Assembly (NCBI GenBank): GCA_951406725.2
Contig: OX597819.1
Coordinates: 89,652,001-89,716,000 of the forward strand
DNA: 64,000 nucleotides
Reading direction: 5' to 3'
Source: Octopus vulgaris
Lineage: Eukaryota
Below are positions 26,014 to 57,390 of this stretch, piece by piece. Every line of letters begins with the position of its first letter. The first letter of the stretch is position 1. The notes below the pieces were generated by a model. It was not told the DNA's origin, made no database searches, and saw only the letters and a program-made list of their open reading frames with translations. The position numbers and the translations under genes were made by a program.

Positions 26014-26016
<3 letters not shown>

Positions 26017-26151
26017 TTTCCCAACTTCCACTCATAGAAACTTATGCACACGATCGCAAAGCATTCCATCTCAAATCCTGTCTTTCTTTCTGCCGCCTAA
26101 AAATCTCATCTTCTCCCATTGCGCGGTGTCGTTTTGTCCCTCTGTTATCAC

Positions 26152-26190
<39 letters not shown>

Positions 26191-27160
26191 ATGTGGTGTC
26201 GGTTTCTCCCTCTGTTATCACTGTCTCTCTCTCTCTCTGTATATATATCTCGCCTTCACTCGCTTCCACAGGCTTAGCCAATACGCAGGATGAAAAATAT
26301 CAGCTAAGTCCTGTTCCTTCTTTTCATTGTTTTTGCAAGTATCATCATCACCATCAAGCCTTCTTCTTATTATTGTTTCCCCATATATTGGCGTTATCGT
26401 TGTCTTTCGTCTCAAATGCTAGCTGAAGCATATAAACTTTCATTCACAAAAACTTCGCAAAAACATCTCGTCTCAAATTTGGTCTTTCTTTCTGTCGCTA
26501 AATTCTCTAACCCATTTTTCCCAACTTCCACTCATAGAAACTTATGCACACGATCGCAAAGCATTCCATCTCAAATCCTGTCTTTCTTTCTGCCGCCTAA
26601 AAATCTCATCTTCTCCCATTGCGCGGTGTCGTTTTGTCCCTCTGTTATCACTATGTCTCTCTCTCTCTCTCTCTCTCTCTCGCTCTCTCTCTCTCGCTAT
26701 GTGGTGTCGGTTTCTCCCTCTGTTATCACTGTCTCTCTCTCTCTCTGTATATATATCTCGCCTTCACTCGCTTCCACAGGCTTAGCCAATACGCAGGATG
26801 AAAAATATCAGCTAAGTCCTGTTCCTTCTTTTCATTGTTTTTGCAAGTATCATCATCACCATCAAGCCTTCTTCTTATTATTGTTTCCCCATATATTGGC
26901 GTTATCGTTGTCTTTCGTCTCAAATGCTAGCTGAAGCATATAAACTTTCATTCACAAAAACTTCGCAAAAACATCTCGTCTCAAATTTGGTCTTTCTTTC
27001 TGTCGCTAAATTCTCTAACCCATTTTTTCCCAACTTCCACTCATAGAAACTTATGCACACGATCGCAAAGCATTCCATCTCAAATCCTGTCTTTCTTTCT
27101 GCCGCCTAAAAATCTCATCTTCTCCCATTGCGCGGTGTCGTTTTGTCCCTCTGTTATCAC

Positions 27161-27197
<37 letters not shown>

Positions 27198-28722
27198 CTC
27201 TCTCTCTCGCTATGTGGTGTCGGTTTCTCCCTCTGTTATCACTGTCTCTCTCTCTCTCTGTATATATATCTCGCCTTCACTCGCTTCCACAGGCTTAGCC
27301 AATACGCAGGATGAAAAATATCAGCTAAGTCCTGTTCCTTCTCTTCATTGTTTTTGCAAGTATCATCATCACCATCAAGCCTTCTTCTTATTATTGTTTC
27401 CCCATATATTGGCGTTATCGTTGTCTTTCGTCTCAAATGCTAGCTGAAGCATATAAACTTTCATTCACAAAAACTTCGCAAAAACATCTCGTCTCAAATT
27501 TGGTCTTTCTTTCTGTCGCTAAATTCTCTAACCCATTTTTCCCAACTTCCACTCATAGAAACTTATGCACACGATCGCAAAGCATTCCATCTCAAATCCT
27601 GTCTTTCTTTCTGCCGCCTAAAAATCTCATCTTCTCCCATTGCGCGGTGTCGTTTTGTCCCTCTGTTATCACTATGTCTCTCTCTCTCTCTCTCTCGCTC
27701 TCTCTCTCTCGCTATGTGGTGTCGGTTTCTCCCTCTGTTATCACTGTCTCTCTCTCTCTCTCTGTATATATATCTCGCCTTTTTTTTTTTTTTTTTTTTT
27801 TTTTCACTCGCTTCCACAGGCTTAGCCAATACGCAGGATGAAAAATATCAGCTAAGTCCTGTTCCTTCTTTTCATTGTTTTTGCAAGTATCATCATCACC
27901 ATCAAGCCTTCTTCTTATTATTGTTTCCCCATATATTGGCGTTATCGTTGTCTTTCGTCTCAAATGCTAGCTGAAGCATATAAACTTTCATTCACAAAAA
28001 CTTCGCAAAAACATCTCGTCTCAAATTTGGTCTTTCTTTCTGTCGCTAAATTCTCTAACCCATTTTTCCCAACTTCCACTCATAGAAACTTATGCACACG
28101 ATCGCAAAGCATTCCATCTCAAATCCTGTCTTTCTTTCTGCCGCCTAAAAATCTCATCTTCTCCCATTGCGCGGTGTCGTTTTGTCCCTCTGTTATCACT
28201 ATGTCTCTCTCTCTCTCTCTCGCTCTCTCTCTCTCGCTATGTGGTGTCGGTTTCTCCCTCTGTTATCACTGTCTCTCTCTCTCTCTCTGTATATATATCT
28301 CGCCTTTTTTTTTTTTTTTTTTTTTTCACTCGCTTCCACAGGCTTAGCCAATACGCAGGATGAAAAATATCAGCTAAGTCCTGTTCCTTCTTTTCATTGT
28401 TTTTGCAAGTATCATCATCACCATCAAGCCTTCTTATTATTATTGTTTCCCCATATATTGGCGTTATCGTTGTCTTTCGTCTCAAATGCTAGCTGAAGCA
28501 TATAAACTTTCATTCACAAAAACTTCGCAAAAACATCTCGTCTCAAATTTGGTCTTTCTTTCTGTCGCTAAATTCTCTAACCCATCTTTTCCCAACTTCC
28601 ACTCATAGAAACTTATGCACACGATCGCAAAGCATTCCATCTCAAATCCTGTCTTTCTTTCTGCCGCCTAAAAATCTCATCTTCTCCCATTGCGCGGTGT
28701 CGTTTTGTCCCTCTGTTATCAC

Positions 28723-28759
<37 letters not shown>

Positions 28760-29235
28760 CTCTCTCTCTCGCTATGTGGTGTCGGTTTCTCCCTCTGTTA
28801 TCACTGTCTCTCTCTCTCTCTGTATATATATCTCGCCTTCACTCGCTTCCACAGGCTTAGCCAATACGCAGGATGAAAAATATCAGCTAAGTCCTGTTCC
28901 TTCTTTTCATTGTTTTTGCAAGTATCATCATCACCATCAAGCCTTCTTATTATTATTGTTTCCCCATATATTGGCGTTATCGTTGTCTTTCGTCTCAAAT
29001 GCTAGCTGAAGCATATAAACTTTCATTCACAAAAACTTCGCAAAAACATCTCGTCTCAAATTTGGTCTTTCTTTCTGTCGCTAAATTCTCTAACCCATCT
29101 TTTCCCAACTTCCACTCATAGAAACTTATGCACACGATCGCAAAGCATTCCATCTCAAATCCTGTCTTTCTTTCTGCCGCCTAAAAATCTCATCTTCTCC
29201 CATTGCGCGGTGTCGTTTTGTCCCTCTGTTATCAC

Positions 29236-29272
<37 letters not shown>

Positions 29273-29748
29273 CTCTCTCTCTCGCTATGTGGTGTCGGTT
29301 TCTCCCTCTGTTATCACTGTCTCTCTCTCTCTCTGTATATATATCTCGCCTTCACTCGCTTCCACAGGCTTAGCCAATACGCAGGATGAAAAATATCAGC
29401 TAAGTCCTGTTCCTTCTTTTCATTGTTTTTGCAAGTATCATCATCACCATCAAGCCTTCTTATTATTATTGTTTCCCCATATATTGGCGTTATCGTTGTC
29501 TTTCGTCTCAAATGCTAGCTGAAGCATATAAACTTTCATTCACAAAAACTTCGCAAAAACATCTCGTCTCAAATTTGGTCTTTCTTTCTGTCGCTAAATT
29601 CTCTAACCCATCTTTTCCCAACTTCCACTCATAGAAACTTATGCACACGATCGCAAAGCATTCCATCTCAAATCCTGTCTTTCTTTCTGCCGCCTAAAAA
29701 TCTCATCTTCTCCCATTGCGCGGTGTCGTTTTGTCCCTCTGTTATCAC

Positions 29749-29785
<37 letters not shown>

Positions 29786-30268
29786 CTCTCTCTCTCGCTA
29801 TGTGGTGTCGGTTTCTCCCTCTGTTATCACTGTCTCTCTCTCTCTCTGTATATATATCTCGCCTTCACTCGCTTCCACAGGCTTAGCCAATACGCAGGAT
29901 GAAAAATATCAGCTAAGTCCTGTTCCTTCTTTTCATTGTTTTTGCAAGTATCATCATCACCATCAAGCCTTCTTCTTATTATTGTTTCCCCATATATTGG
30001 CGTTATCGTTGTCTTTCGTCTCAAATGCTAGCTGAAGCATATAAACTTTCATTCACAAAAACTTCGCAAAAACATCTCGTCTCAAATTTGGTCTTTCTTT
30101 CTGTCGCTAAATTCTCTAACCCATCTTTTCCCAACTTCCACTCATAGAAACTTATGCACACGATCGCAAAGCATTCCATCTCAAATCCTGTCTTTCTTTC
30201 TGCCGCCTAAAAATCTCATCTTCTCCCATTGCGCGGTGTCGTTTTGTCCCTCTGTTATCACTATGTCT

Positions 30269-30300
<32 letters not shown>

Positions 30301-30790
30301 GCTATGTGGTGTCGGTTTCTCCCTCTGTTATCACTGTCTCTCTCTCTCTCTCTGTATATATATCTCGCCTTTTTTTTTTTTTTTTTTTTTTTTTCACTCG
30401 CTTCCACAGGCTTAGCCAATACGCAGGATGAAAAATATCAGCTAAGTCCTGTTCCTTCTTTTCATTGTTTTTGCAAGTATCATCATCACCATCAAGCCTT
30501 CTTATTATTATTGTTTCCCCATATATTGGCGTTATCGTTGTCTTTCGTCTCAAATGCTAGCTGAAGCATATAAACTTTCATTCACAAAAACTTCGCAAAA
30601 ACATCTCGTCTCAAATTTGGTCTTTCTTTCTGTCGCTAAATTCTCTAACCCATCTTTTCCCAACTTCCACTCATAGAAACTTATGCACACGATCGCAAAG
30701 CATTCCATCTCAAATCCTGTCTTTCTTTCTGCCGCCTAAAAATCTCATCTTCTCCCATTGCGCGGTGTCGTTTTGTCCCTCTGTTATCAC

Positions 30791-30839
<49 letters not shown>

Positions 30840-31814
30840 ATGTGGTGTCGGTTTCTCCCTCTGTTATCACTGTCTCTCTCTCTCTCTCTGTATATATATC
30901 TCGCCTTCACTCGCTTCCACAGGCTTAGCCAATACGCAGGATGAAAAATATCAGCTAAGTCCTGTTCCTTCTTTTCATTGTTTTTGCAAGTATCATCATC
31001 ACCATCAAGCCTTCTTATTATTATTGTTTCCCCATATATTGGCGTTATCGTTGTCTTTCGTCTCAAATGCTAGCTGAAGCATATAAACTTTCATTCACAA
31101 AAACTTCGCAAAAACATCTCGTCTCAAATTTGGTCTTTCTTTCTGTCGCTAAATTCTCTAACCCATCTTTTCCCAACTTCCACTCATAGAAACTTATGCA
31201 CACGATCGCAAAGCATTCCATCTCAAATCCTGTCTTTCTTTCTGCCGCCTAAAAATCTCATCTTCTCCCATTGCGCGGTGTCGTTTTGTCCCTCTGTTAT
31301 CACTATGTCTCTCTCTCTCTCTCTCTCTCTCCCTCGCTCTCTCTCTCTCGCTATGTGGTGTCGGTTTCTCCCTCTGTTATCACTGTCTCTCTCTCTCTCT
31401 GTATATATATCTCGCCTTCACTCGCTTCCACAGGCTTAGCCAATACGCAGGATGAAAAATATCAGCTAAGTCCTGTTCCTTCTTTTCATTGTTTTTGCAA
31501 GTATCATCATCACCATCAAGCCTTCTTATTATTATTGTTTCCCCATATATTGGCGTTATCGTTGTCTTTCGTCTCAAATGCTAGCTGAAGCATATAAACT
31601 TTCATTCACAAAAACTTCGCAAAAACATCTCGTCTCAAATTTGGTCTTTCTTTCTGTCGCTAAATTCTCTAACCCATCTTTTCCCAACTTCCACTCATAG
31701 AAACTTATGCACACGATCGCAAAGCATTCCATCTCAAATCCTGTCTTTCTTTCTGCCGCCTAAAAATCTCATCTTCTCCCATTGCGCGGTGTCGTTTTGT
31801 CCCTCTGTTATCAC

Positions 31815-31859
<45 letters not shown>

Positions 31860-32339
31860 CTCTCTCTCTCGCTATGTGGTGTCGGTTTCTCCCTCTGTTA
31901 TCACTGTCTCTCTCTCTCTCTCTCTGTATATATATCTCGCCTTCACTCGCTTCCACAGGCTTAGCCAATACGCAGGATGAAAAATATCAGCTAAGTCCTG
32001 TTCCTTCTTTTCATTGTTTTTGCAAGTATCATCATCACCATCAAGCCTTCTTATTATTATTGTTTCCCCATATATTGGCGTTATCGTTGTCTTTCGTCTC
32101 AAATGCTAGCTGAAGCATATAAACTTTCATTCACAAAAACTTCGCAAAAACATCTCGTCTCAAATTTGGTCTTTCTTTCTGTCGCTAAATTCTCTAACCC
32201 ATCTTTTCCCAACTTCCACTCATAGAAACTTATGCACACGATCGCAAAGCATTCCATCTCAAATCCTGTCTTTCTTTCTGCCGCCTAAAAATCTCATCTT
32301 CTCCCATTGCGCGGTGTCGTTTTGTCCCTCTGTTATCAC

Positions 32340-32376
<37 letters not shown>

Positions 32377-32853
32377 CTCTCTCTCTCGCTATGTGGTGTC
32401 GGTTTCTCCCTCTGTTATCACTGTCTCTCTCTCTCTCTGTATATATATCTCGCCTTCACTCGCTTCCACAGGCTTAGCCAATACGCAGGATGAAAAATAT
32501 CAGCTAAGTCCTGTTCCTTCTTTTCATTGTTTTTGCAAGTATCATCATCACCATCAAGCCTTCTTATTATTATTGTTTCCCCATATATTGGCGTTATCGT
32601 TGTCTTTCGTCTCAAATGCTAGCTGAAGCATATAAACTTTCATTCACAAAAACTTCGCAAAAACATCTCGTCTCAAATTTGGTCTTTCTTTCTGTCGCTA
32701 AATTCTCTAACCCATCTTTTCCCAACTTCCACTCATAGAAACTTATGCACACGATCGCAAAGCATTCCATCTCAAATCCTGTCTTTCTTTCTGCCGCCTA
32801 AAAATCTCATCTTCTCCCATTGCGCGGGTGTCGTTTTGTCCCTCTGTTATCAC

Positions 32854-32896
<43 letters not shown>

Positions 32897-33372
32897 CTCT
32901 CTCTCTCGCTATGTGGTGTCGGTTTCTCCCTCTGTTATCACTGTCTCTCTCTCTCTCTGTATATATATCTCGCCTTCACTCGCTTCCACAGGCTTAGCCA
33001 ATACGCAGGATGAAAAATATCAGCTAAGTCCTGTTCCTTCTTTTCATTGTTTTTGCAAGTATCATCATCACCATCAAGCCTTCTTATTATTATTGTTTCC
33101 CCATATATTGGCGTTATCGTTGTCTTTCGTCTCAAATGCTAGCTGAAGCATATAAACTTTCATTCACAAAAACTTCGCAAAAACATCTCGTCTCAAATTT
33201 GGTCTTTCTTTCTGTCGCTAAATTCTCTAACCCATCTTTTCCCAACTTCCACTCATAGAAACTTATGCACACGATCGCAAAGCATTCCATCTCAAATCCT
33301 GTCTTTCTTTCTGCCGCCTAAAAATCTCATCTTCTCCCATTGCGCGGTGTCGTTTTGTCCCTCTGTTATCAC

Positions 33373-33411
<39 letters not shown>

Positions 33412-33887
33412 CTCTCTCTCTCGCTATGTGGTGTCGGTTTCTCCCTCTGTTATCACTGTCTCTCTCTCTCTCTGTATATATATCTCGCCTTCACTCGCTT
33501 CCACAGGCTTAGCCAATACGCAGGATGAAAAATATCAGCTAAGTCCTGTTCCTTCTTTTCATTGTTTTTGCAAGTATCATCATCACCATCAAGCCTTCTT
33601 ATTATTATTGTTTCCCCATATATTGGCGTTATCGTTGTCTTTCGTCTCAAATGCTAGCTGAAGCATATAAACTTTCATTCACAAAAACTTCGCAAAAACA
33701 TCTCGTCTCAAATTTGGTCTTTCTTTCTGTCGCTAAATTCTCTAACCCATCTTTTCCCAACTTCCACTCATAGAAACTTATGCACACGATCGCAAAGCAT
33801 TCCATCTCAAATCCTGTCTTTCTTTCTGCCGCCTAAAAATCTCATCTTCTCCCATTGCGCGGTGTCGTTTTGTCCCTCTGTTATCAC

Positions 33888-33924
<37 letters not shown>

Positions 33925-34400
33925 CTCTCTCTCTCGCTATGTGGTGTCGGTTTCTCCCTCTGTTATCACTGTCTCTCTCTCTCTCTGTATATATATCTCG
34001 CCTTCACTCGCTTCCACAGGCTTAGCCAATACGCAGGATGAAAAATATCAGCTAAGTCCTGTTCCTTCTTTTCATTGTTTTTGCAAGTATCATCATCACC
34101 ATCAAGCCTTCTTATTATTATTGTTTCCCCATATATTGGCGTTATCGTTGTCTTTCGTCTCAAATGCTAGCTGAAGCATATAAACTTTCATTCACAAAAA
34201 CTTCGCAAAAACATCTCGTCTCAAATTTGGTCTTTCTTTCTGTCGCTAAATTCTCTAACCCATCTTTTCCCAACTTCCACTCATAGAAACTTATGCACAC
34301 GATCGCAAAGCATTCCATCTCAAATCCTGTCTTTCTTTCTGCCGCCTAAAAATCTCATCTTCTCCCATTGCGCGGTGTCGTTTTGTCCCTCTGTTATCAC

Positions 34401-34453
<53 letters not shown>

Positions 34454-34915
34454 ATGTGGTGTCGGTTTCTCCCTCTGTTATCACTGTCTCTCTCTCTCTC
34501 TGTATATATATCTCGCCTTCACTCGCTTCCACAGGCTTAGCCAATACGCAGGATGAAAAATATCAGCTAAGTCCTGTTCCTTCTTTTCATTGTTTTTGCA
34601 AGTATCATCATCACCATCAAGCCTTCTTATTATTATTGTTTCCCCATATATTGGCGTTATCGTTGTCTTTCGTCTCAAATGCTAGCTGAAGCATATAAAC
34701 TTTCATTCACAAAAACTTCGCAAAAACATCTCGTCTCAAATTTGGTCTTTCTTTCTGTCGCTAAATTCTCTAACCCATCTTTTCCCAACTTCCACTCATA
34801 GAAACTTATGCACACGATCGCAAAGCATTCCATCTCAAATCCTGTCTTTCTTTCTGCCGCCTAAAAATCTCATCTTCTCCCATTGCGCGGTGTCGTTTTG
34901 TCCCTCTGTTATCAC

Positions 34916-34952
<37 letters not shown>

Positions 34953-35428
34953 CTCTCTCTCTCGCTATGTGGTGTCGGTTTCTCCCTCTGTTATCACTGT
35001 CTCTCTCTCTCTCTGTATATATATCTCGCCTTCACTCGCTTCCACAGGCTTAGCCAATACGCAGGATGAAAAATATCAGCTAAGTCCTGTTCCTTCTTTT
35101 CATTGTTTTTGCAAGTATCATCATCACCATCAAGCCTTCTTATTATTATTGTTTCCCCATATATTGGCGTTATCGTTGTCTTTCGTCTCAAATGCTAGCT
35201 GAAGCATATAAACTTTCATTCACAAAAACTTCGCAAAAACATCTCGTCTCAAATTTGGTCTTTCTTTCTGTCGCTAAATTCTCTAACCCATCTTTTCCCA
35301 ACTTCCACTCATAGAAACTTATGCACACGATCGCAAAGCATTCCATCTCAAATCCTGTCTTTCTTTCTGCCGCCTAAAAATCTCATCTTCTCCCATTGCG
35401 CGGTGTCGTTTTGTCCCTCTGTTATCAC

Positions 35429-35463
<35 letters not shown>

Positions 35464-36448
35464 CTCTCTCTCTCGCTATGTGGTGTCGGTTTCTCCCTCT
35501 GTTATCACTGTCTCTCTCTCTCTCTGTATATATATCTCGCCTTCACTCGCTTCCACAGGCTTAGCCAATACGCAGGATGAAAAATATCAGCTAAGTCCTG
35601 TTCCTTCTTTTCATTGTTTTTGCAAGTATCATCATCACCATCAAGCCTTCTTATTATTATTGTTTCCCCATATATTGGCGTTATCGTTGTCTTTCGTCTC
35701 AAATGCTAGCTGAAGCATATAAACTTTCATTCACAAAAACTTCGCAAAAACATCTCGTCTCAAATTTGGTCTTTCTTTCTGTCGCTAAATTCTCTAACCC
35801 ATCTTTTCCCAACTTCCACTCATAGAAACTTATGCACACGATCGCAAAGCATTCCATCTCAAATCCTGTCTTTCTTTCTGCCGCCTAAAAATCTCATCTT
35901 CTCCCATTGCGCGGTGTCGTTTTGTCCCTCTGTTATCACTATGTCTCTCTCTCTCTCTCTCTCTCTCTCGCTCTCTCTCTCTCGCTATGTGGTGTCGGTT
36001 TCTCCCTCTGTTATCACTGTCTCTCTCTCTCTCTGTATATATATCTCGCCTTCACTCGCTTCCACAGGCTTAGCCAATACGCAGGATGAAAAATATCAGC
36101 TAAGTCCTGTTCCTTCTTTTCATTGTTTTTGCAAGTATCATCATCACCATCAAGCCTTCTTATTATTATTGTTTCCCCATATATTGGCGTTATCGTTGTC
36201 TTTCGTCTCAAATGCTAGCTGAAGCATATAAACTTTCATTCACAAAAACTTCGCAAAAACATCTCGTCTCAAATTTGGTCTTTCTTTCTGTCGCTAAATT
36301 CTCTAACCCATCTTTTCCCAACTTCCACTCATAGAAACTTATGCACACGATCGCAAAGCATTCCATCTCAAATCCTGTCTTTCTTTCTGCCGCCTAAAAA
36401 TCTCATCTTCTCCCATTGCGCGGTGTCGTTTTGTCCCTCTGTTATCAC

Positions 36449-36485
<37 letters not shown>

Positions 36486-36961
36486 CTCTCTCTCTCGCTA
36501 TGTGGTGTCGGTTTCTCCCTCTGTTATCACTGTCTCTCTCTCTCTCTGTATATATATCTCGCCTTCACTCGCTTCCACAGGCTTAGCCAATACGCAGGAT
36601 GAAAAATATCAGCTAAGTCCTGTTCCTTCTTTTCATTGTTTTTGCAAGTATCATCATCACCATCAAGCCTTCTTATTATTATTGTTTCCCCATATATTGG
36701 CGTTATCGTTGTCTTTCGTCTCAAATGCTAGCTGAAGCATATAAACTTTCATTCACAAAAACTTCGCAAAAACATCTCGTCTCAAATTTGGTCTTTCTTT
36801 CTGTCGCTAAATTCTCTAACCCATCTTTTCCCAACTTCCACTCATAGAAACTTATGCACACGATCGCAAAGCATTCCATCTCAAATCCTGTCTTTCTTTC
36901 TGCCGCCTAAAAATCTCATCTTCTCCCATTGCGCGGTGTCGTTTTGTCCCTCTGTTATCAC

Positions 36962-37006
<45 letters not shown>

Positions 37007-37471
37007 GCTATGTGGTGTCGGTTTCTCCCTCTGTTATCACTGTCTCTCTCTCTCTCTGTATATATATCTCGCCTTCACTCGCTTCCACAGGCTTAGCCAA
37101 TACGCAGGATGAAAAATATCAGCTAAGTCCTGTTCCTTCTTTTCATTGTTTTTGCAAGTATCATCATCACCATCAAGCCTTCTTATTATTATTGTTTCCC
37201 CATATATTGGCGTTATCGTTGTCTTTCGTCTCAAATGCTAGCTGAAGCATATAAACTTTCATTCACAAAAACTTCGCAAAAACATCTCGTCTCAAATTTG
37301 GTCTTTCTTTCTGTCGCTAAATTCTCTAACCCATCTTTTCCCAACTTCCACTCATAGAAACTTATGCACACGATCGCAAAGCATTCCATCTCAAATCCTG
37401 TCTTTCTTTCTGCCGCCTAAAAATCTCATCTTCTCCCATTGCGCGGTGTCGTTTTGTCCCTCTGTTATCAC

Positions 37472-37508
<37 letters not shown>

Positions 37509-38493
37509 CTCTCTCTCTCGCTATGTGGTGTCGGTTTCTCCCTCTGTTATCACTGTCTCTCTCTCTCTCTGTATATATATCTCGCCTTCACTCGCTTCCA
37601 CAGGCTTAGCCAATACGCAGGATGAAAAATATCAGCTAAGTCCTGTTCCTTCTTTTCATTGTTTTTGCAAGTATCATCATCACCATCAAGCCTTCTTATT
37701 ATTATTGTTTCCCCATATATTGGCGTTATCGTTGTCTTTCGTCTCAAATGCTAGCTGAAGCATATAAACTTTCATTCACAAAAACTTCGCAAAAACATCT
37801 CGTCTCAAATTTGGTCTTTCTTTCTGTCGCTAAATTCTCTAACCCATCTTTTCCCAACTTCCACTCATAGAAACTTATGCACACGATCGCAAAGCATTCC
37901 ATCTCAAATCCTGTCTTTCTTTCTGCCGCCTAAAAATCTCATCTTCTCCCATTGCGCGGTGTCGTTTTGTCCCTCTGTTATCACTATGTCTCTCTCTCTC
38001 TCTCTCTCTCTCTCGCTCTCTCTCTCTCGCTATGTGGTGTCGGTTTCTCCCTCTGTTATCACTGTCTCTCTCTCTCTCTGTATATATATCTCGCCTTCAC
38101 TCGCTTCCACAGGCTTAGCCAATACGCAGGATGAAAAATATCAGCTAAGTCCTGTTCCTTCTTTTCATTGTTTTTGCAAGTATCATCATCACCATCAAGC
38201 CTTCTTATTATTATTGTTTCCCCATATATTGGCGTTATCGTTGTCTTTCGTCTCAAATGCTAGCTGAAGCATATAAACTTTCATTCACAAAAACTTCGCA
38301 AAAACATCTCGTCTCAAATTTGGTCTTTCTTTCTGTCGCTAAATTCTCTAACCCATTTTTTCCCAACTTCCACTCATAGAAACTTATGCACACGATCGCA
38401 AAGCATTCCATCTCAAATCCTGTCTTTCTTTCTGCCGCCTAAAAATCTCATCTTCTCCCATTGCGCGGTGTCGTTTTGTCCCTCTGTTATCAC

Positions 38494-38530
<37 letters not shown>

Positions 38531-39006
38531 CTCTCTCTCTCGCTATGTGGTGTCGGTTTCTCCCTCTGTTATCACTGTCTCTCTCTCTCTCTGTATATAT
38601 ATCTCGCCTTCACTCGCTTCCACAGGCTTAGCCAATACGCAGGATGAAAAATATCAGCTAAGTCCTGTTCCTTCTTTTCATTGTTTTTGCAAGTATCATC
38701 ATCACCATCAAGCCTTCTTATTATTATTGTTTCCCCATATATTGGCGTTATCGTTGTCTTTCGTCTCAAATGCTAGCTGAAGCATATAAACTTTCATTCA
38801 CAAAAACTTCGCAAAAACATCTCGTCTCAAATTTGGTCTTTCTTTCTGTCGCTAAATTCTCTAACCCATCTTTTCCCAACTTCCACTCATAGAAACTTAT
38901 GCACACGATCGCAAAGCATTCCATCTCAAATCCTGTCTTTCTTTCTGCCGCCTAAAAATCTCATCTTCTCCCATTGCGCGGTGTCGTTTTGTCCCTCTGT
39001 TATCAC

Positions 39007-39043
<37 letters not shown>

Positions 39044-39519
39044 CTCTCTCTCTCGCTATGTGGTGTCGGTTTCTCCCTCTGTTATCACTGTCTCTCTCTC
39101 TCTCTGTATATATATCTCGCCTTCACTCGCTTCCACAGGCTTAGCCAATACGCAGGATGAAAAATATCAGCTAAGTCCTGTTCCTTCTTTTCATTGTTTT
39201 TGCAAGTATCATCATCACCATCAAGCCTTCTTATTATTATTGTTTCCCCATATATTGGCGTTATCGTTGTCTTTCGTCTCAAATGCTAGCTGAAGCATAT
39301 AAACTTTCATTCACAAAAACTTCGCAAAAACATCTCGTCTCAAATTTGGTCTTTCTTTCTGTCGCTAAATTCTCTAACCCATTTTTTCCCAACTTCCACT
39401 CATAGAAACTTATGCACACGATCGCAAAGCATTCCATCTCAAATCCTGTCTTTCTTTCTGCCGCCTAAAAATCTCATCTTCTCCCATTGCGCGGTGTCGT
39501 TTTGTCCCTCTGTTATCAC

Positions 39520-39556
<37 letters not shown>

Positions 39557-40540
39557 CTCTCTCTCTCGCTATGTGGTGTCGGTTTCTCCCTCTGTTATCA
39601 CTGTCTCTCTCTCTCTCTGTATATATATCTCGCCTTCACTCGCTTCCACAGGCTTAGCCAATACGCAGGATGAAAAATATCAGCTAAGTCCTGTTCCTTC
39701 TTTTCATTGTTTTTGCAAGTATCATCATCACCATCAAGCCTTCTTCTTATTATTGTTTCCCCATATATTGGCGTTATCGTTGTCTTTCGTCTCAAATGCT
39801 AGCTGAAGCATATAAACTTTCATTCACAAAAACTTCGCAAAAACATCTCGTCTCAAATTTGGTCTTTCTTTCTGTCGCTAAATTCTCTAACCCATCTTTT
39901 CCCAACTTCCACTCATAGAAACTTATGCACACGATCGCAAAGCATTCCATCTCAAATCCTGTCTTTCTTTCTGCCGCCTAAAAATCTCATCTTCTCCCAT
40001 TGCGCGGTGTCGTTTTGTCCCTCTGTTATCACTATGTCTCTCTCTCTCTCTCTCTCTCTCTCGCTCTCTCTCTCTCGCTATGTGGTGTCGGTTTCTCCCT
40101 CTGTTATCACTGTCTCTCTCTCTCTCTGTATATATATCTCGCCTTCACTCGCTTCCACAGGCTTAGCCAATACGCAGGATGAAAAATATCAGCTAAGTCC
40201 TGTTCCTTCTTTTCATTGTTTTTGCAAGTATCATCATCACCATCAAGCCTTCTTATTATTATTGTTTCCCCATATATTGGCGTTATCGTTGTCTTTCGTC
40301 TCAAATGCTAGCTGAAGCATATAAACTTTCATTCACAAAAACTTCGCAAAAACATCTCGTCTCAAATTTGGTCTTTCTTTCTGTCGCTAAATTCTCTAAC
40401 CCATTTTTCCCAACTTCCACTCATAGAAACTTATGCACACGATCGCAAAGCATTCCATCTCAAATCCTGTCTTTCTTTCTGCCGCCTAAAAATCTCATCT
40501 TCTCCCATTGCGCGGTGTCGTTTTGTCCCTCTGTTATCAC

Positions 40541-40577
<37 letters not shown>

Positions 40578-41052
40578 CTCTCTCTCTCGCTATGTGGTGT
40601 CGGTTTCTCCCTCTGTTATCACTGTCTCTCTCTCTCTCTGTATATATATCTCGCCTTCACTCGCTTCCACAGGCTTAGCCAATACGCAGGATGAAAAATA
40701 TCAGCTAAGTCCTGTTCCTTCTTTTCATTGTTTTTGCAAGTATCATCATCACCATCAAGCCTTCTTCTTATTATTGTTTCCCCATATATTGGCGTTATCG
40801 TTGTCTTTCGTCTCAAATGCTAGCTGAAGCATATAAACTTTCATTCACAAAAACTTCGCAAAAACATCTCGTCTCAAATTTGGTCTTTCTTTCTGTCGCT
40901 AAATTCTCTAACCCATTTTTCCCAACTTCCACTCATAGAAACTTATGCACACGATCGCAAAGCATTCCATCTCAAATCCTGTCTTTCTTTCTGCCGCCTA
41001 AAAATCTCATCTTCTCCCATTGCGCGGTGTCGTTTTGTCCCTCTGTTATCAC

Positions 41053-41086
<34 letters not shown>

Positions 41087-42069
41087 CTCTCTCTCTCGCT
41101 ATGTGGTGTCGGTTTCTCCCTCTGTTATCACTGTCTCTCTCTCTCTCTGTATATATATCTCGCCTTCACTCGCTTCCACAGGCTTAGCCAATACGCAGGA
41201 TGAAAAATATCAGCTAAGTCCTGTTCCTTCTTTTCATTGTTTTTGCAAGTATCATCATCACCATCAAGCCTTCTTATTATTATTGTTTCCCCATATATTG
41301 GCGTTATCGTTGTCTTTCGTCTCAAATGCTAGCTGAAGCATATAAACTTTCATTCACAAAAACTTCGCAAAAACATCTCGTCTCAAATTTGGTCTTTCTT
41401 TCTGTCGCTAAATTCTCTAACCCATTTTTCCCAACTTCCACTCATAGAAACTTATGCACACGATCGCAAAGCATTCCATCTCAAATCCTGTCTTTCTTTC
41501 TGCCGCCTAAAAATCTCATCTTCTCCCATTGCGCGGTGTCGTTTTGTCCCTCTGTTATCACTATGTCTCTCTCTCTCTCTCTCTCTCTCTCGCTCTCTCT
41601 CTCTCGCTATGTGGTGTCGGTTTCTCCCTCTGTTATCACTGTCTCTCTCTCTCTCTGTATATATATCTCGCCTTCACTCGCTTCCACAGGCTTAGCCAAT
41701 ACGCAGGATGAAAAATATCAGCTAAGTCCTGTTCCTTCTTTTCATTGTTTTTGCAAGTATCATCATCACCATCAAGCCTTCTTATTATTATTGTTTCCCC
41801 ATATATTGGCGTTATCGTTGTCTTTCGTCTCAAATGCTAGCTGAAGCATATAAACTTTCATTCACAAAAACTTCGCAAAAACATCTCGTCTCAAATTTGG
41901 TCTTTCTTTCTGTCGCTAAATTCTCTAACCCATTTTTCCCAACTTCCACTCATAGAAACTTATGCACACGATCGCAAAGCATTCCATCTCAAATCCTGTC
42001 TTTCTTTCTGCCGCCTAAAAATCTCATCTTCTCCCATTGCGCGGTGTCGTTTTGTCCCTCTGTTATCAC

Positions 42070-42106
<37 letters not shown>

Positions 42107-42581
42107 CTCTCTCTCTCGCTATGTGGTGTCGGTTTCTCCCTCTGTTATCACTGTCTCTCTCTCTCTCTGTATATATATCTCGCCTTCACTCGCTTCCACA
42201 GGCTTAGCCAATACGCAGGATGAAAAATATCAGCTAAGTCCTGTTCCTTCTTTTCATTGTTTTTGCAAGTATCATCATCACCATCAAGCCTTCTTCTTAT
42301 TATTGTTTCCCCATATATTGGCGTTATCGTTGTCTTTCGTCTCAAATGCTAGCTGAAGCATATAAACTTTCATTCACAAAAACTTCGCAAAAACATCTCG
42401 TCTCAAATTTGGTCTTTCTTTCTGTCGCTAAATTCTCTAACCCATTTTTCCCAACTTCCACTCATAGAAACTTATGCACACGATCGCAAAGCATTCCATC
42501 TCAAATCCTGTCTTTCTTTCTGCCGCCTAAAAATCTCATCTTCTCCCATTGCGCGGTGTCGTTTTGTCCCTCTGTTATCAC

Positions 42582-42616
<35 letters not shown>

Positions 42617-43091
42617 CTCTCTCTCTCGCTATGTGGTGTCGGTTTCTCCCTCTGTTATCACTGTCTCTCTCTCTCTCTGTATATATATCTCGCCTTCACT
42701 CGCTTCCACAGGCTTAGCCAATACGCAGGATGAAAAATATCAGCTAAGTCCTGTTCCTTCTTTTCATTGTTTTTGCAAGTATCATCATCACCATCAAGCC
42801 TTCTTATTATTATTGTTTCCCCATATATTGGCGTTATCGTTGTCTTTCGTCTCAAATGCTAGCTGAAGCATATAAACTTTCATTCACAAAAACTTCGCAA
42901 AAACATCTCGTCTCAAATTTGGTCTTTCTTTCTGTCGCTAAATTCTCTAACCCATTTTTCCCAACTTCCACTCATAGAAACTTATGCACACGATCGCAAA
43001 GCATTCCATCTCAAATCCTGTCTTTCTTTCTGCCGCCTAAAAATCTCATCTTCTCCCATTGCGCGGTGTCGTTTTGTCCCTCTGTTATCAC

Positions 43092-43128
<37 letters not shown>

Positions 43129-43603
43129 CTCTCTCTCTCGCTATGTGGTGTCGGTTTCTCCCTCTGTTATCACTGTCTCTCTCTCTCTCTGTATATATAT
43201 CTCGCCTTCACTCGCTTCCACAGGCTTAGCCAATACGCAGGATGAAAAATATCAGCTAAGTCCTGTTCCTTCTTTTCATTGTTTTTGCAAGTATCATCAT
43301 CACCATCAAGCCTTCTTATTATTATTGTTTCCCCATATATTGGCGTTATCGTTGTCTTTCGTCTCAAATGCTAGCTGAAGCATATAAACTTTCATTCACA
43401 AAAACTTCGCAAAAACATCTCGTCTCAAATTTGGTCTTTCTTTCTGTCGCTAAATTCTCTAACCCATTTTTCCCAACTTCCACTCATAGAAACTTATGCA
43501 CACGATCGCAAAGCATTCCATCTCAAATCCTGTCTTTCTTTCTGCCGCCTAAAAATCTCATCTTCTCCCATTGCGCGGTGTCGTTTTGTCCCTCTGTTAT
43601 CAC

Positions 43604-43640
<37 letters not shown>

Positions 43641-44115
43641 CTCTCTCTCTCGCTATGTGGTGTCGGTTTCTCCCTCTGTTATCACTGTCTCTCTCTCTCT
43701 CTGTATATATATCTCGCCTTCACTCGCTTCCACAGGCTTAGCCAATACGCAGGATGAAAAATATCAGCTAAGTCCTGTTCCTTCTTTTCATTGTTTTTGC
43801 AAGTATCATCATCACCATCAAGCCTTCTTATTATTATTGTTTCCCCATATATTGGCGTTATCGTTGTCTTTCGTCTCAAATGCTAGCTGAAGCATATAAA
43901 CTTTCATTCACAAAAACTTCGCAAAAACATCTCGTCTCAAATTTGGTCTTTCTTTCTGTCGCTAAATTCTCTAACCCATTTTTCCCAACTTCCACTCATA
44001 GAAACTTATGCACACGATCGCAAAGCATTCCATCTCAAATCCTGTCTTTCTTTCTGCCGCCTAAAAATCTCATCTTCTCCCATTGCGCGGTGTCGTTTTG
44101 TCCCTCTGTTATCAC

Positions 44116-44152
<37 letters not shown>

Positions 44153-44627
44153 CTCTCTCTCTCGCTATGTGGTGTCGGTTTCTCCCTCTGTTATCACTGT
44201 CTCTCTCTCTCTCTGTATATATATCTCGCCTTCACTCGCTTCCACAGGCTTAGCCAATACGCAGGATGAAAAATATCAGCTAAGTCCTGTTCCTTCTTTT
44301 CATTGTTTTTGCAAGTATCATCATCACCATCAAGCCTTCTTCTTATTATTGTTTCCCCATATATTGGCGTTATCGTTGTCTTTCGTCTCAAATGCTAGCT
44401 GAAGCATATAAACTTTCATTCACAAAAACTTCGCAAAAACATCTCGTCTCAAATTTGGTCTTTCTTTCTGTCGCTAAATTCTCTAACCCATTTTTCCCAA
44501 CTTCCACTCATAGAAACTTATGCACACGATCGCAAAGCATTCCATCTCAAATCCTGTCTTTCTTTCTGCCGCCTAAAAATCTCATCTTCTCCCATTGCGC
44601 GGTGTCGTTTTGTCCCTCTGTTATCAC

Positions 44628-44664
<37 letters not shown>

Positions 44665-45139
44665 CTCTCTCTCTCGCTATGTGGTGTCGGTTTCTCCCTC
44701 TGTTATCACTGTCTCTCTCTCTCTCTGTATATATATCTCGCCTTCACTCGCTTCCACAGGCTTAGCCAATACGCAGGATGAAAAATATCAGCTAAGTCCT
44801 GTTCCTTCTTTTCATTGTTTTTGCAAGTATCATCATCACCATCAAGCCTTCTTCTTATTATTGTTTCCCCATATATTGGCGTTATCGTTGTCTTTCGTCT
44901 CAAATGCTAGCTGAAGCATATAAACTTTCATTCACAAAAACTTCGCAAAAACATCTCGTCTCAAATTTGGTCTTTCTTTCTGTCGCTAAATTCTCTAACC
45001 CATTTTTCCCAACTTCCACTCATAGAAACTTATGCACACGATCGCAAAGCATTCCATCTCAAATCCTGTCTTTCTTTCTGCCGCCTAAAAATCTCATCTT
45101 CTCCCATTGCGCGGTGTCGTTTTGTCCCTCTGTTATCAC

Positions 45140-45174
<35 letters not shown>

Positions 45175-46133
45175 CTCTCTCTCTCGCTATGTGGTGTCGG
45201 TTTCTCCCTCTGTTATCACTGTCTCTCTCTCTCTCTGTATATATATCTCGCCTTCACTCGCTTCCACAGGCTTAGCCAATACGCAGGATGAAAAATATCA
45301 GCTAAGTCCTGTTCCTTCTTTTCATTGTTTTTGCAAGTATCATCATCACCATCAAGCCTTCTTCTTATTATTGTTTCCCCATATATTGGCGTTATCGTTG
45401 TCTTTCGTCTCAAATGCTAGCTGAAGCATATAAACTTTCATTCACAAAAACTTCGCAAAAACATCTCGTCTCAAATTTGGTCTTTCTTTCTGTCGCTAAA
45501 TTCTCTAACCCATTTTTCCCAACTTCCACTCATAGAAACTTATGCACACGATCGCAAAGCATTCCATCTCAAATCCTGTCTTTCTTTCTGCCGCCTAAAA
45601 ATCTCATCTTCTCCCATTGCGCGGTGTCGTTTTGTCCCTCTGTTATCACTATTCTCTCTCTCTCTCTCTCTCTCTCTCGCTCTCTCTCTCTCGCTATGTG
45701 GTGTCGGTTTCTCCCTCTGTTATCACTGTCTCTCTCTCTCTCTGTATATATATCTCGCCTTCACTCGCTTCCACAGGCTTAGCCAATACGCAGGATGAAA
45801 AATATCAGCTAAGTCCTGTTCCTTCTTTTCATTGTTTTTGCAAGTATCATCATCACCATCAAGCCTTCTTCTTATTATTGTTTCCCCATATATTGGCGTT
45901 ATCGTTGTCTTTCGTCTCAAATGCTAGCTGAAGCATATAAACTTTCATTCACAAAAACTTCGCAAAAACATCTCGTCTCAAATTTGGTCTTTCTTTCTGT
46001 CGCTAAATTCTCTAACCCATTTTTCCCAACTTCCACTCATAGAAACTTATGCACACGATCGCAAAGCATTCCATCTCAAATCCTGTCTTTCTTTCTGCCG
46101 CCTAAAAATCTCATCTTCTCCCATTGCGCGGTG
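26014..46133 (+). repeat. Satellite-like tandem array: 115-bp partial unit plus 39 full units of 507-529 bp
   Basis: The same marker ORF recurs 39 times (ends 26415 to 45920). Length variation comes from internal (CT)n and poly-T runs. Confidence 0.98.
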
Positions 46134-47025
46134 CGCCCGCCCTCCCACCCCCACCACCAATACCACCACCAATACCACCACCAATACCACCACCAATACC
46201 ACCACCACCACCAATACCACCCCCACCACCAATACCACCAATACCACCCCCACCACCAATACCACCCCCCCCACCGCCAATACCACCAATACCGGTGAAC
46301 ACTGTTCTCACCATCTACACCGGATACTCCCTCCTCCTCCCCCACCACCCCTTCCTACCCCTTCTCCTCATGCTTTCACTGAGAAAAGACAAGCTGCTAG
46401 CGTCTCAGCTCATCAACCGCCCTCTGATCTTACGCTTCCTCCTGTTTTGAATCTGACACTGCCTCAATCCTACTATCCCCTTCCAGTCCCCTCCATGCCT
46501 CGTAATATCCTACGTTTTTATTTCTTACGAACCTGCACCAACCCTTCCTGCCATCGTTCCTCCTTACCCACCCAACCTTCCCCACACCTACCCATATATA
46601 TACACATCCTACGTTTATATTTCTTACGAACCTTCACCAACCCTTCCTGCCATCGTTCCTCCTCCCCCAACCTTCCCCACTGGTGCTCCCCTATATTACC
46701 TGCACCCCTTTACTATCTCTCCCTCTCTTTTCACTGGTGAAACCTTTCTCAGCTGGACCCCCCCCAACTCAACTCTACCCCGCATCCCGTTGCCCGAACC
46801 GATCGTGACCGATGCCGGACCCCCGGCCCCTGTGCAGGTGGCACGTAAAAAGCACCCAATCCACTCACGGAGTGGTTGGCGTTAGGAAGGGCATCCAGCC
46901 GTAGAAACTCTGCCAGAATCAGACTGGAGCCTGGAGCGGCCCCTGGCTTCCCAGACCCCGGTCGAACCGTCCAACCCGTGCTAGCGCGGAAAACGGACGT
47001 TAAACGATGATGATGATGATGATGA

Positions 47026-47029
<4 letters not shown>
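46134..47029 (+). mobile_element. C-rich body and RTE-type 3' tail of composite non-autonomous element 1
   Basis: (CCACCACCAATA)-type repeats at 46145-46292, then a pyrimidine-rich body. It ends in GTGGCACGTAAAAAGCACCC...GTTGGCGTTAGGAAGGGCATCCAGC...GGACGTTAAAC(GAT)n, which matches the 3' UTR of the RTE at 49339-50320. Confidence 0.85.
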
Positions 47030-53384: not shown

Positions 53385-53448
<64 letters not shown>

Positions 53449-53465: not shown

Positions 53466-54171
53466 GCATCAACATCATTTAAAAACCAAATGTGTGAATC
53501 ACAAATCTGTTTTTTTTTTTTTTTTTTTTTGTTTCTGTTTGTATATGTTGTGTGTCTTGTTTCTGTGTATTTGTTTGCCTGCTTTTATTTTATTCTTATA
53601 TTTGTAAAACAAACATTTACAGCAAAACAAAATAGCATGATGCCCAGAAGATTATTGGCAAATCTGTAGATTTAATGTGTAGCTATAAATTGCAAACAAT
53701 CTCAAAAGAATACATTGAGAGTAATACTGCTTAAATACAACTAAATCAAACTTGCTGTGACAGCAGTTTAGTAGCTTAGTACAAACAGCACAGACATGTC
53801 TTTGTATTGATTTTTATAATGCAGAACTGATGGATATGGTTGGTATTTGGTATCTATCTAGCATGTACAGAAGATGACTAATTATTATATACCGAAACGC
53901 AAAATATATTGTAAAGTAATACATAAAGTTAAGTATATGACACCCTTGCATATTCTGGTGTATTTAATATGTATTGCGAAATGAGAAATCTATCAACAGA
54001 ATAATTCTCAAAAAATTGCTTACCGAATTTTTACAACTTCATTTCCAAGAGGGAGAAAGAAAAAAAAAAAATTGATGTTGGTGATGGCTGGGATTCTAAA
54101 AACATCACAAGATAATCTACTTTATGGGTACGTGTGTGCAAACATATGCAAACGTATGTGGCTGTGTGTGT

Positions 54172-54299
<128 letters not shown>

Positions 54300-54578
54300 T
54301 GAGATGTATTGTCTGTGGGTGAGAGCTGTAGGTGTTTTTGTTTTACAAATAGGTGTGTGTATGTGAGTGCATACTTAATGTGAATGCGCATGTATCAGAA
54401 TGAGTTGACATGCAAATGTGCCTGTATGCTATGTGTGTATGTATGTGACTCAGTGTTTTATGCAGATGTATTATTTATGCAAATATATGTTATTTGCAAG
54501 TATATATATGTGTGTGTGTGTGTATGTGCATATGCATATATTTGTAGGTATGTGTATATATACATAAATATATATGTG

Positions 54579-54630
<52 letters not shown>

Positions 54631-54731
54631 TATGTATATATATGTATGCATATATATCTGCATGTGTATGTGCACATGCATGCATATATTGTGTGTAGTG
54701 TATATATATGTGTGTGCATACATCCATACAT

Positions 54732-54766
<35 letters not shown>

Positions 54767-54800
54767 CATACACATATATACATACATATATATATATACA

Positions 54801-54834
<34 letters not shown>

Positions 54835-56538
54835 CTCGCCTCGTTTTGCATATTCTGTATAATTCACTAGTTATCGTTATAGATATTTTAAGATCTATCT
54901 CCCTTATAGAAATTGGCTGCCGATTCTTCGCGGGGTTTTTCTTTTCTCTTCCCTTCTCTCCCCCTCTTGTTACATTGTCGTCTGTCTGGACTCCTCTCTT
55001 CCTACCACCCGCCATGGCTATGCATACTTAAGCTAGTAAACTGCCTCATTCTTGATTCCGAATTCCTTTTGCCAAGTCTGTCCGTAAACGAAGTGATCTC
55101 AAGATAAGAAATCTTTGAACTTTAATTCATCCGTATCTCTATTTATTATTATTATTTATTAATTATTATTATTCTGATCCCCCTAGTCGCCACTCTGTTT
55201 ACTATTTCAGCCTCGCCTCGCCTCGTTTTGCATATTCTGTATAATTCACTAGTTATCGTTATAGATATTTTAAGATCTATCTCCCTTATAGAAATTGGCT
55301 GCCGATTCTTCGCGGCGCGCCCGCCCTACCCACCCCCACCACCAATACCGGATATCTCTATTTTGCTCCAACTATACCGGATGTCGTTTTCTCCCACCAC
55401 CATTATAGGTGTCTACTCTTTGAACCCCCTCTTCAATACGCTATTTCACCATGCATTACCCCTCTCTCGATATCCTACGTTCTACTTGCCTAGAACCTGT
55501 CCTCTGGACCACCCCTCCCACTGGTGCTCACCCCTCCCACTGGTGCTCCCCTATATTTCTGCATCCCCCCACCACCATTATAGGTGTCTACTCTTTGAAC
55601 CCCCCTCTTCAATACGCTATTTCACCATGCATTACCCCTCTCTCGATATCCTACGTTCTACTTGCCTAGAACCTGTCCTCTGAACCACCCCTCCCACTGG
55701 TGCTCCCCTATATTTCTGCACCCCCCACCACCATTATAGGTGTCTACTCTTTGAACCCCCTCTTCAATACGCTATTCACCATGCATTACCCCTCTCTCAA
55801 TATCCTACGTTCTACTTGCCTAGAACCTGTCCTCTGAACCACCCCTCCCACTGGTGCCCACCCCTCCCACTGGTGCTCCCCTATATTTCTGCATCCCCCC
55901 CACCACCATAATAGGTGTCTACTCTTTGAACCCCCCTCTTCAATACGCTATTTCACCATGCATTACCCCTCTCTCGATATCCTACGTTCTACTTGCCTAG
56001 AACCTGTCCCCTGAACCACCCCTCCCACTGGTGCTCTCCTATATTTCTGCACCCCCACCACCATTATAGGTGTCTACTCTTTGAACCCCCTCTTCAATAC
56101 GCTGCTCCCCTATATTTCTGCACCCCCCACCACCATTATAGGTGTCTACTCTTTGAACCCCCTCTTCAATACGCTATTTCACCATGCATTACCCTCTCTC
56201 TCGATATCCTACGTTCTACTTGACTAGTACCTGTCCTCTGAACCACCCCTCCCACTGGTGCTCCCCTATATTTCTGCACCCCCCCCATAAAAAGCACCAT
56301 CCGAACGTGGCCGATGCCAGACCCCTCTGGCACCTGTGCAGGTGGCACGTAAAAAACACCCACTACACTCGCGGAGTGGTTGGCGTTAGGAAGGGCATCC
56401 AGCTGTAGAAACACTGCCAGACTAGACTGGAGCCTGGGGCAGTCCCGAGCTCCCCAGACCCCGGTCGAAACCGTCCAACCCGTGCTAGCGCGGAAAACGG
56501 ACGTTAAACGATGATGATGATGATGATGATGATGATGA
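54835..56538 (+). mobile_element. Composite non-autonomous element 2: 99-bp partial plus one full 382-bp monomer, C-rich junction, VNTR body and RTE tail
   Basis: 54835-54933 repeats at 55217-55315. The junction reads CGCGG|CGCGCCCGCCCTACCCACCCCCACCACCAATACCGG. It is followed by ~160-180-bp tandem units (55390-56285) and an RTE 3' tail with (GAT)n. Flanks are TA-rich. Confidence 0.85.
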
Positions 56539-56579
56539 CATACATATATACAGACACATATAGACATACATATATATAT

Positions 56580-56690
56580 TATCATCATCATCATTGTTGT
56601 TTAAACTCCGCTTTCCATACTGGCATGGGTTGAACGGTTTGACTCAAGACTGGTGAGCCAGAAGGCTGCACCAGGCTCCAATCTGATCTG
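56580..56690 (-). mobile_element. Short RTE 3'-tail fragment
   Basis: Reverse complement of CAGATCAGATTGGAGCCTGGTGCAGCC...AACCCATGCCAGTATGGAAAGCGGAG...(GAT)n. Confidence 0.75.
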
Positions 56691-56797
56691 TATTTATATA
56701 TATATATATACATATATATATGTATATATGTGTGTATATATATATATGTGTGTGTGTGTGTATATACATATATATATACATACATATACATATATAC

Positions 56798-56922
56798 AGA
56801 GCGTAGGCTCGAAACGTTAAAGACTTGTTTTATTTATATTTCCTGAGCGCCATACTAATACAATTGTTCATTTGTTTTCCACCTGCCTTCGTCTTTTGTC
56901 TATTTTCATAAAGCTTCCCGTT
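56798..56922 (+). mobile_element. Penelope-like 3' end fragment truncated within the hammerhead
   Basis: AGAGCGTAGGCTCGAAACGTTAAAGAC...CTTCCCGTT is homologous to 51122-51237. Flanks are TA-rich. Confidence 0.75.
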
Positions 56923-56980
56923 ATATATATACATATATATATACACTAACATATATATATATACATATATATACATACAT

Positions 56981-57013
<33 letters not shown>

Positions 57014-57043
57014 CATACACACACACATATAAATACATACATA

Positions 57044-57075
<32 letters not shown>

Positions 57076-57343
57076 CACACACACAGACACACACGCACAT
57101 ATATATACATATACATATGTACGTACATACATACATAAGTGTGTATTTGTGTGTATGTTATATGAATATGTATGTATGTATGTGAAAGCATGTTTGTGAA
57201 TATGTATATTTGCAAATGTGTCAGGTTGCATGTATATGATTAGAGAAATAGAAAGAGAGAGAGGAAGCAGGTGGGAGAATGGGGTCAAAAAAGAAAGTGA
57301 GAGAACAAGATAGCTAGATGGATAGAGAGATAGATAGACAGAC

Positions 57344-57390
<47 letters not shown>

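Follow-up and report, generated by a model that had tools for sequence, protein, structure and literature searches.

Exchange of tandem 5′ monomer arrays at a conserved junction of an RTE-like LINE family in Octopus vulgaris

The element at positions 54835–56538 of the analysed stretch of Octopus vulgaris DNA (64,000 nucleotides, called the window below) is best read, with a probability of about 0.75, as a young derivative of an RTE-like LINE from which the ORF has been deleted, whose 5′ array is likely a promoter and whose relatives exchange such arrays at a conserved junction. Exchanged tandem 5′ cassettes in the style of L1 are present both in this invertebrate RTE-like family and in its non-autonomous derivatives.

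The element and its autonomous partner

The bounds of the element were confirmed: it starts at 54835, just past a (TA)n stretch that adjoins it on the 5′ side, and ends at 56538 in (GAT)n. Since (TA)n is found on both flanks, target-site duplications cannot be told apart. All parts read on the + strand. The array amounts to 1.26 units only, namely the last 99 bp of a 5′-truncated class-B monomer (54835..54933), which agree at 100% with the terminal part of the full unit, and one full class-B monomer of 382 bp, a likely promoter unit ending in CGCGG (54934..55315). The motif at the end of this monomer has 581 exact matches in the genome, many of them in tandem. A weak collinear alignment to the core of the D-class monomer (Z 3–4) points to a likely promoter-core remnant at 55023..55108, where a TATA-like stretch (55023–55032), an initiator-like TCATTC (55046–55051) and AGATAAG (55102–55108) are found. 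The conserved junction follows (55311..55349); it contains a GC box and CACCC-like motifs, marks the start of the ‘tether’ of the LINE 5′ UTR and is the region in which swaps cross over. The body (55350..56288) derives by internal deletion from the 5′ UTR of the C/D LINE lineage and has expanded into tandem repeats (154–177-bp units at 55393–56175, detected with TRF), and it maps to +1..+400 of the autonomous copies L032, L033, L056 and L092 with 75–91% identity. The tail (56289..56509), which is the end of a LINE 3′ UTR, is 85–93% identical to autonomous 3′ ends and 99–100% identical to that of other copies with the same body and tail (chassis B); a terminal (GAT)n microsatellite (56510..56538) closes the element. 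No EN or C-terminal ORF matches were found in it.

Other identities were considered and rejected. For a head derived from tRNA, 5S or 7SL there was no Rfam match (E up to 1 in 43000–58000), the 117 Rfam matches obtained being driven by microsatellites. There was likewise no Rfam ribozyme match for a self-cleaving ribozyme of the HDV-like or retrozyme kind, although divergent ribozymes might escape such a search, and folding (z of –0.1 and –0.8) did not indicate a conserved hairpin at the junction.

The window contains a comparison element at 26014–47029, also on the + strand. Its array (26014..46131) is formed by ~39.3 units of a ~512-bp class-A monomer, with 40 unit ends spaced 500–529 bp apart, and, as a deletion relative to L122/L040 shows, is without the TATA segment found in autonomous A monomers; a junction with a C-lineage 5′ UTR body (46127..46798) and a tail with (GAT)n (46799..47029) follow. 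According to the original prediction, the two elements have junction, body and tail in common beneath unrelated monomers. The junctions do agree at 37 of 39 bases (55311–55349 versus 46127–46164; E 2e-12). The body motifs are real, but ‘same body’ was an overstatement, as they are patches (33 bp at 91–94% and 31 bp at 81%), the body at 55350..56288 consisting largely of a 154–177-bp repeat of its own; similarly, the tail is common to both, but with 90.6% identity across 234 bp (56301–56533 versus 46799–47029) ‘nearly identical’ was too strong. The 382-bp and ~512-bp monomers are as dissimilar as claimed: their local alignment scored 24 against a shuffled mean of 22.8 (63 of 200 shuffles as high), 50 of 200 shuffles matched the global score, and profile HMMs of monomers A and B gave no match in either direction. 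Both bodies match the first 400 nt of the long C/D 5′ UTR, after which the sequence continues directly with the final ~240 nt of the 3′ UTR; the two elements are internally deleted, non-autonomous, bipartite RTE-like LINEs, the term being used as in the available part of PMC5786205.

Collection of genomic matches to the junction, as proposed at the outset, gave 281 with a 16-base pattern in the 2.8-Gb genome and 0 with the reversed control. A sample of 122 loci was then analysed, made up of 100 of these 281 places, 20 others that came from a pattern without the GCGG requirement, and the two window elements; its genomic loci were all from contigs C1–C5. Of the 122 loci, 26 (13 of class A, 8 of class E and 5 of class C/D) have an EN domain that starts 0.28–0.87 kb downstream of the junction. 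In most of these the RT C-terminus lies near 2.5–3.8 kb and the tail near 3.0–4.4 kb past the junction, the autonomous order being array, junction, 5′ UTR, ORF, 3′ UTR and (GAT)n. Stop-free frames of 1035–1060 aa are present in L104, L112, L125 and L127; the two that were scanned (L104 and L112) contain PF03372 (AP endonuclease) and PF00078 (RT), whereas RNase H families gave no match at E 0.01. This partner LINE has a single ORF and no ORF1. It is labelled RTE-like by its architecture and by motifs that we take to be those of RTE elements; clade names were absent from the 120 listed homologues of the ORF.

The original prediction also offered an alternative in which both arrays lie within long RTE 3′ UTRs, to be checked by looking for an RTE ORF upstream of the array. 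LINE 3′ UTRs do contain tandem repeats, of 62–67 bp. However, all 26 ORF-bearing loci have the ORF downstream of the junction and the array upstream, and 74 of the 109 resolved 5′ ends, as well as those of both window arrays, abut (TA)n directly. Since the array precedes the junction and the ORF follows it, the arrays are 5′ modules, and a 3′ UTR location has a negligible chance of being correct. The predicted ‘conserved chassis’ exists, but it is the LINE's own 5′ and 3′ UTR, and the window pair falls in different clades of it.

Several other features of the partner family were observed. After the RT domain, residues 783–834 of the L104 ORF gave a weak PHD/C1 finger match, and PHD is annotated in many of the 120 listed homologues. 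A splice-acceptor-like sequence, TCTTCTTTTCAG|G, is conserved at the nucleotide level before the endonuclease in subfamilies A, E and C/D (~230 nt past the junction in L043 and L104; ~50 nt before the EN start in C/D), and L032 has TACTAAC upstream of it. As regards an intron before the ORF at this site, in-frame ATGs are present upstream, and contigs of four runs, guessed to be RNA, showed no splice joint at TCTTCTTTTCAG|G on L104. The – strand of the window bears, at 49327–50330, a 5′-truncated copy of the autonomous family (an ORF C-terminus with stops) that served as a probe; it has 62-bp tandem repeats in its 3′ UTR and the family tail at 83%.

Elsewhere in the window, near-identical 3′ parts of another LINE, presumably CR1-like and including an RT domain, occupy 4570–6480, 15620–16820, 19370–21590 and 24530–25950, most of which stop at very long (TA)n tracts, and another RT fragment is found at 23084–24123 (– strand). 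An AT-rich tandem repeat family with 372-bp, 87–89-bp and 64-bp units is found at 1–1294 and 14700–15520, the two stretches being 75–95% alike. It lies immediately 5′ of an ORF at 14057–14644 (– strand) with weak Myb/SANT and CCCH matches, below the cutoff; together, repeats and ORF may represent a second element whose 5′ region is tandem.

Exchange of arrays at the junction

The monomers were sorted into classes A (466–699 bp in autonomous copies, ~510 bp in non-autonomous ones and 344–405 bp in A1; GC of the A array ~41%), B (333–404 bp, with an older B2), C/D (314–420 bp), E (554–617 bp, in autonomous copies only) and F (224–267 bp). At the F unit boundary, for example in L132, CGCCATCTTG matches the YY1 motif GCCATCTT, which has been cited for mouse L1 monomers; CGCCATT occurs in C/D and E monomers. 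The sequences upstream of the junction, which might have proved to be flanks lacking tandem structure, contain at least one full unit in 67 of 91 non-autonomous copies and at least three units in 26 of them; the 23 autonomous copies never exceed 2.03 units.

A single chassis was found to carry different monomers. Chassis-B copies typically have a 140-nt body with 94–100% and a tail with 96–100% identity to the 54835–56538 element, two copies being more divergent than these ranges. On them, monomers B, B2 and F were present at 43, 3 and 11 loci, respectively, A1 was joined directly at 3 loci and stacked with F at 14, and the C monomer was found in L087 and possibly L020 (1–2 loci); 13 loci had no scorable 3′ end. 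Seen from the side of the monomer, A is carried by 13 autonomous A copies, 24 C-lineage bodies (including the 40-unit window element) and 17 chassis-B copies. A-bearing elements fall in three chassis clades, and their monophyly was rejected with the tail only (AU p 1.6e-11) and with body and tail combined (AU p 1.6e-72), as was that of C/D-bearing elements (p 0.00025); the trees contained hand-picked rows, 43 for tails and 34 for body plus tail. These results show that subfamilies have exchanged arrays at the conserved junction. Since the two window elements fall in different chassis clades, the pair by itself is no evidence of a swap; L1-style 5′ module swapping, as first proposed from that pair, is borne out genome-wide by the mosaics and the AU test and not by the pair alone. 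The swapped element in the window is the 40-copy one, an A-lineage monomer on a C-lineage body.

The stacked elements consist of an A1 array, a junction, ~70 nt of UTR, a 5′-truncated F, 0–3 more F units, a second junction and body B. In 17 of 28 F loci the A1 module stands in front of F, with one identical breakpoint, which indicates that the stacked form is one capture that was amplified rather than many; among the 11 loci with F alone there may be stacked copies that have been truncated. Certain A1+F tails are identical to B-element tails. A collapsed form, with A1 directly on body B, is found in L042, L070 and L083. A swap would likely start with an RT jump from the 5′-truncated copy of one element to the 5′ UTR of another RNA, and would end with a deletion between the duplicated junctions.

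These mosaics have to be weighed against an account without any foreign swap, in which one ancestral promoter unit, bound to its lineage, evolved fast by duplication and deletion. Between-class HMM scores are at shuffle level except for B2 versus the D-type monomer (E 1.8e-7), which links B to D, and weak collinear similarity joins the cores of A and E (Z 5–6) and of B and D (Z 3–4). An ATG...AG(C/A)TAAG-like core is common to all classes but F, and the ORFs of A and E (86–88% identical to each other) are 75–77% identical to that of C/D, so that A and C/D are old enough for alignability to have been lost. The classes, although unalignable, probably share a remote promoter core, and the A–E and B–D similarities suggest that they are ancient homologues rather than foreign recruits. 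A one-ancestor account fails, however, on the A1, F, B and C monomers that stand over 96–100% identical tails, on the tails common to A1+F and B elements and on the two-junction intermediate; as a complete account, which we regard as unlikely, it is refuted by the AU test. It likely accounts for how B itself arose, and perhaps for A versus E. Since B2 links B to D and chassis B stands next to the D-type autonomous L033 in the tree, the 382-bp B monomer is probably native to its own chassis and fast-evolving.

Promoter-like features and growth of the arrays

By analogy with rodent L1, the monomers are likely a repeated RNA polymerase II promoter. In autonomous A monomers, CCAAT is followed by a C-rich box, then by TATAAAA and finally by a short uORF; those of C/D contain CTTCCGG, TATTTAAA, TCATTC ~27 nt later and a 5-codon uORF. 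We take these motifs to be CCAAT, TATA, initiator and ETS elements. The 5′ ends of autonomous C/D copies begin 2–23 nt upstream of the uORF ATG, at TCATTC, in 8 of 18 cases (scan p 0.0006 for a 25-nt window, its width chosen after seeing the data); the set came from 30 of 67 genomic ORF starts, 18 of which had kept upstream sequence; L056 was added, L167 being unresolved. Non-autonomous A 5′ ends formed a weaker cluster (8/18, p 0.04), and no clustering was seen in B (scan p 0.46) or A1 (p 0.49). From the TATA/initiator-like motifs, and from 5′-end clustering in one class, we infer promoter function. In a sample drawn from the 281 matches to the junction and the 581 to the monomer end, none of 47 class-B copies, and none of another 6, had an ORF; as B also has no 5′-end cluster, its promoter role is assigned by analogy. 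Two candidate arguments were discarded: a 5-codon uORF common to A, B and C/D, which A and C/D do have but which in B lies away from the homologous position, the alignment to D setting the core at AGATAAG, and a B 5′-end test anchored on that uORF (12/40, binomial p 0.02), which is void given the scan-corrected value.

Were the monomers passive, they would be satellite-like hitchhikers, transcribed by read-through from host promoters and growing in DNA only. Such a role would fit the lack of a 5′-end peak in B and A1, the loss of the TATA segment from non-autonomous A monomers, which are nevertheless abundant, the block structure of the 39-unit array described below, and the copy number of internal F and body repeats, which varies too. 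It is nonetheless improbable given the CCAAT–TATA–initiator order in autonomous A and the ETS–TATA–initiator order in C/D, the clustering of C/D 5′ ends at the initiator, the longer arrays of younger copies and the presence of a monomer at this position in every sampled autonomous class. If the arrays are promoters, as we prefer, transcription would start inside a monomer, at the TATA/initiator core ~20 nt upstream of the short uORF, and with such an internal start the downstream units would supply each new copy with a complete promoter. The element RNA would likely be copied in trans by the autonomous RT via the common tail.

Units differ by 1.0–2.3 changes inside an array versus 3.4–11 between loci, and those of the same rank are no closer than those of other ranks. 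Most units are identical in arrays with 18, 33 and 44 units scored, 39 window units show zero isolated substitutions over 17.1 kb, and in some arrays variants rare elsewhere are fixed in every unit. The near-identity of the units and these array-private variants indicate that a single unit gave rise to each rebuilt array. Arrays are longer in copies that have no private substitutions (median 2.5 versus 1.5 units, p 0.004, n=79), and array length is negatively correlated with private substitutions (rho –0.27, p 0.017, n=79), six of the unit counts having been updated and the rest being lower bounds; the longer arrays of younger copies fit the idea that arrays are longest at birth. Singletons in array units amount to 0.33/kb versus 1.2/kb for private changes in body and tail (p 0.005), and the 39-unit window array has its indel variants in blocks, with ends alike; low singletons and block structure fit DNA-level expansion after insertion. 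We favour a course in which arrays are amplified upon insertion or shortly thereafter and recombine later; re-amplification from one unit would likely proceed by repeated RT jumps or early unequal recombination.

Two observations on individual arrays may be added. Three window units (27780, 28307 and 30370) have a common TT-to-T(20-25) expansion that marks descent from one unit. At G000:C2:55353865-55372449 (L189–L191), a ~48-unit A1 array has its first ~3.7 units inverted, possibly as from twin priming or as an assembly artefact; there is noise at the inversion point, and the array runs into a gap.

Related systems and significance

Rodent L1 is the best-known case of tandem promoter monomers that have been replaced repeatedly. 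In the available parts of PMC5381506 and PMC6454616, the rodent elements (L1Md A/F/G/T) resemble those of octopus in that a conserved tether connects the tandem monomers with the ORF, in a variable copy number that can reach tens of units, and in monomer types that lack homology, stand on related bodies and are exchanged between families. Truncation sites near the start site, another trait of the rodent elements, have a parallel in the octopus C/D class, a weaker one in A and none in A1 or B. How rodent arrays are rebuilt ‘remains unclear’ (PMC6454616). The octopus LINE differs in having a single ORF without ORF1 and a (GAT)n tail instead of poly-A, its monomers are 220–700 bp long with TATA/initiator-like motifs, and most array carriers are non-autonomous. 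Unlike the position-preferring L1Md subtypes of those texts, the sampled octopus arrays have no rank-specific monomer subtypes. Among vertebrate L1s, the promoter arms race has been argued to be mammal-specific (PMC5381506, part available).

The Nicotiana SolRTE elements are RTE-clade LINEs with a conserved body and 3′ UTR and with 5′ ends that have been exchanged repeatedly, and template switching has been proposed for their 5′ UTR switching (bioRxiv 10.1101/2022.11.04.512097, main text). The octopus system differs in that the exchanged unit is a tandem array and an intermediate is preserved; the main text of that paper does not use the word ‘tandem’. Bov-A, RTESINE1/2, WALLSI3 and MAR4_MD also keep 5′ and 3′ LINE parts with the ORF deleted, whereas the main text describing them mentions neither tandem arrays nor octopus (PMC5786205). 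RTE-2_OV, from Octopus vulgaris itself, is also a single-ORF EN+RT element (~1100 aa, with a zinc-binding motif), but according to the available part of PMC9115989 its 3′ microsatellite begins at the ORF end, unlike in the octopus array LINEs. Three RTE-2_OV primers had no match within 3 mismatches in 9 autonomous copies, and it is likely another family. The main text of PMC13282606 describes no such arrays and does not mention monomer, promoter, non-autonomous or satellite. No description of this system turned up among the papers listed in literature searches, although the repeat library and supplements of PMC13282606, and Repbase, may hold these families.

A more speculative idea, which we consider rather doubtful, is that the RTE-like RT builds arrays of up to 20 kb per insertion by repeated jumps on one monomer RNA and captures the promoter cassettes of other subfamilies likewise. 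If true, this would constitute a LINE counterpart of LTR regeneration, independent of rodent L1, and a direct path from a retroposon promoter to satellite DNA. In genome annotation, such arrays would be mis-called satellites. The presence of intact ORFs, very young copies, a swap intermediate and arrays of <1 to >40 units makes swap and re-expansion testable in this family, and the matching architecture in an unrelated, invertebrate type of LINE represents convergence.
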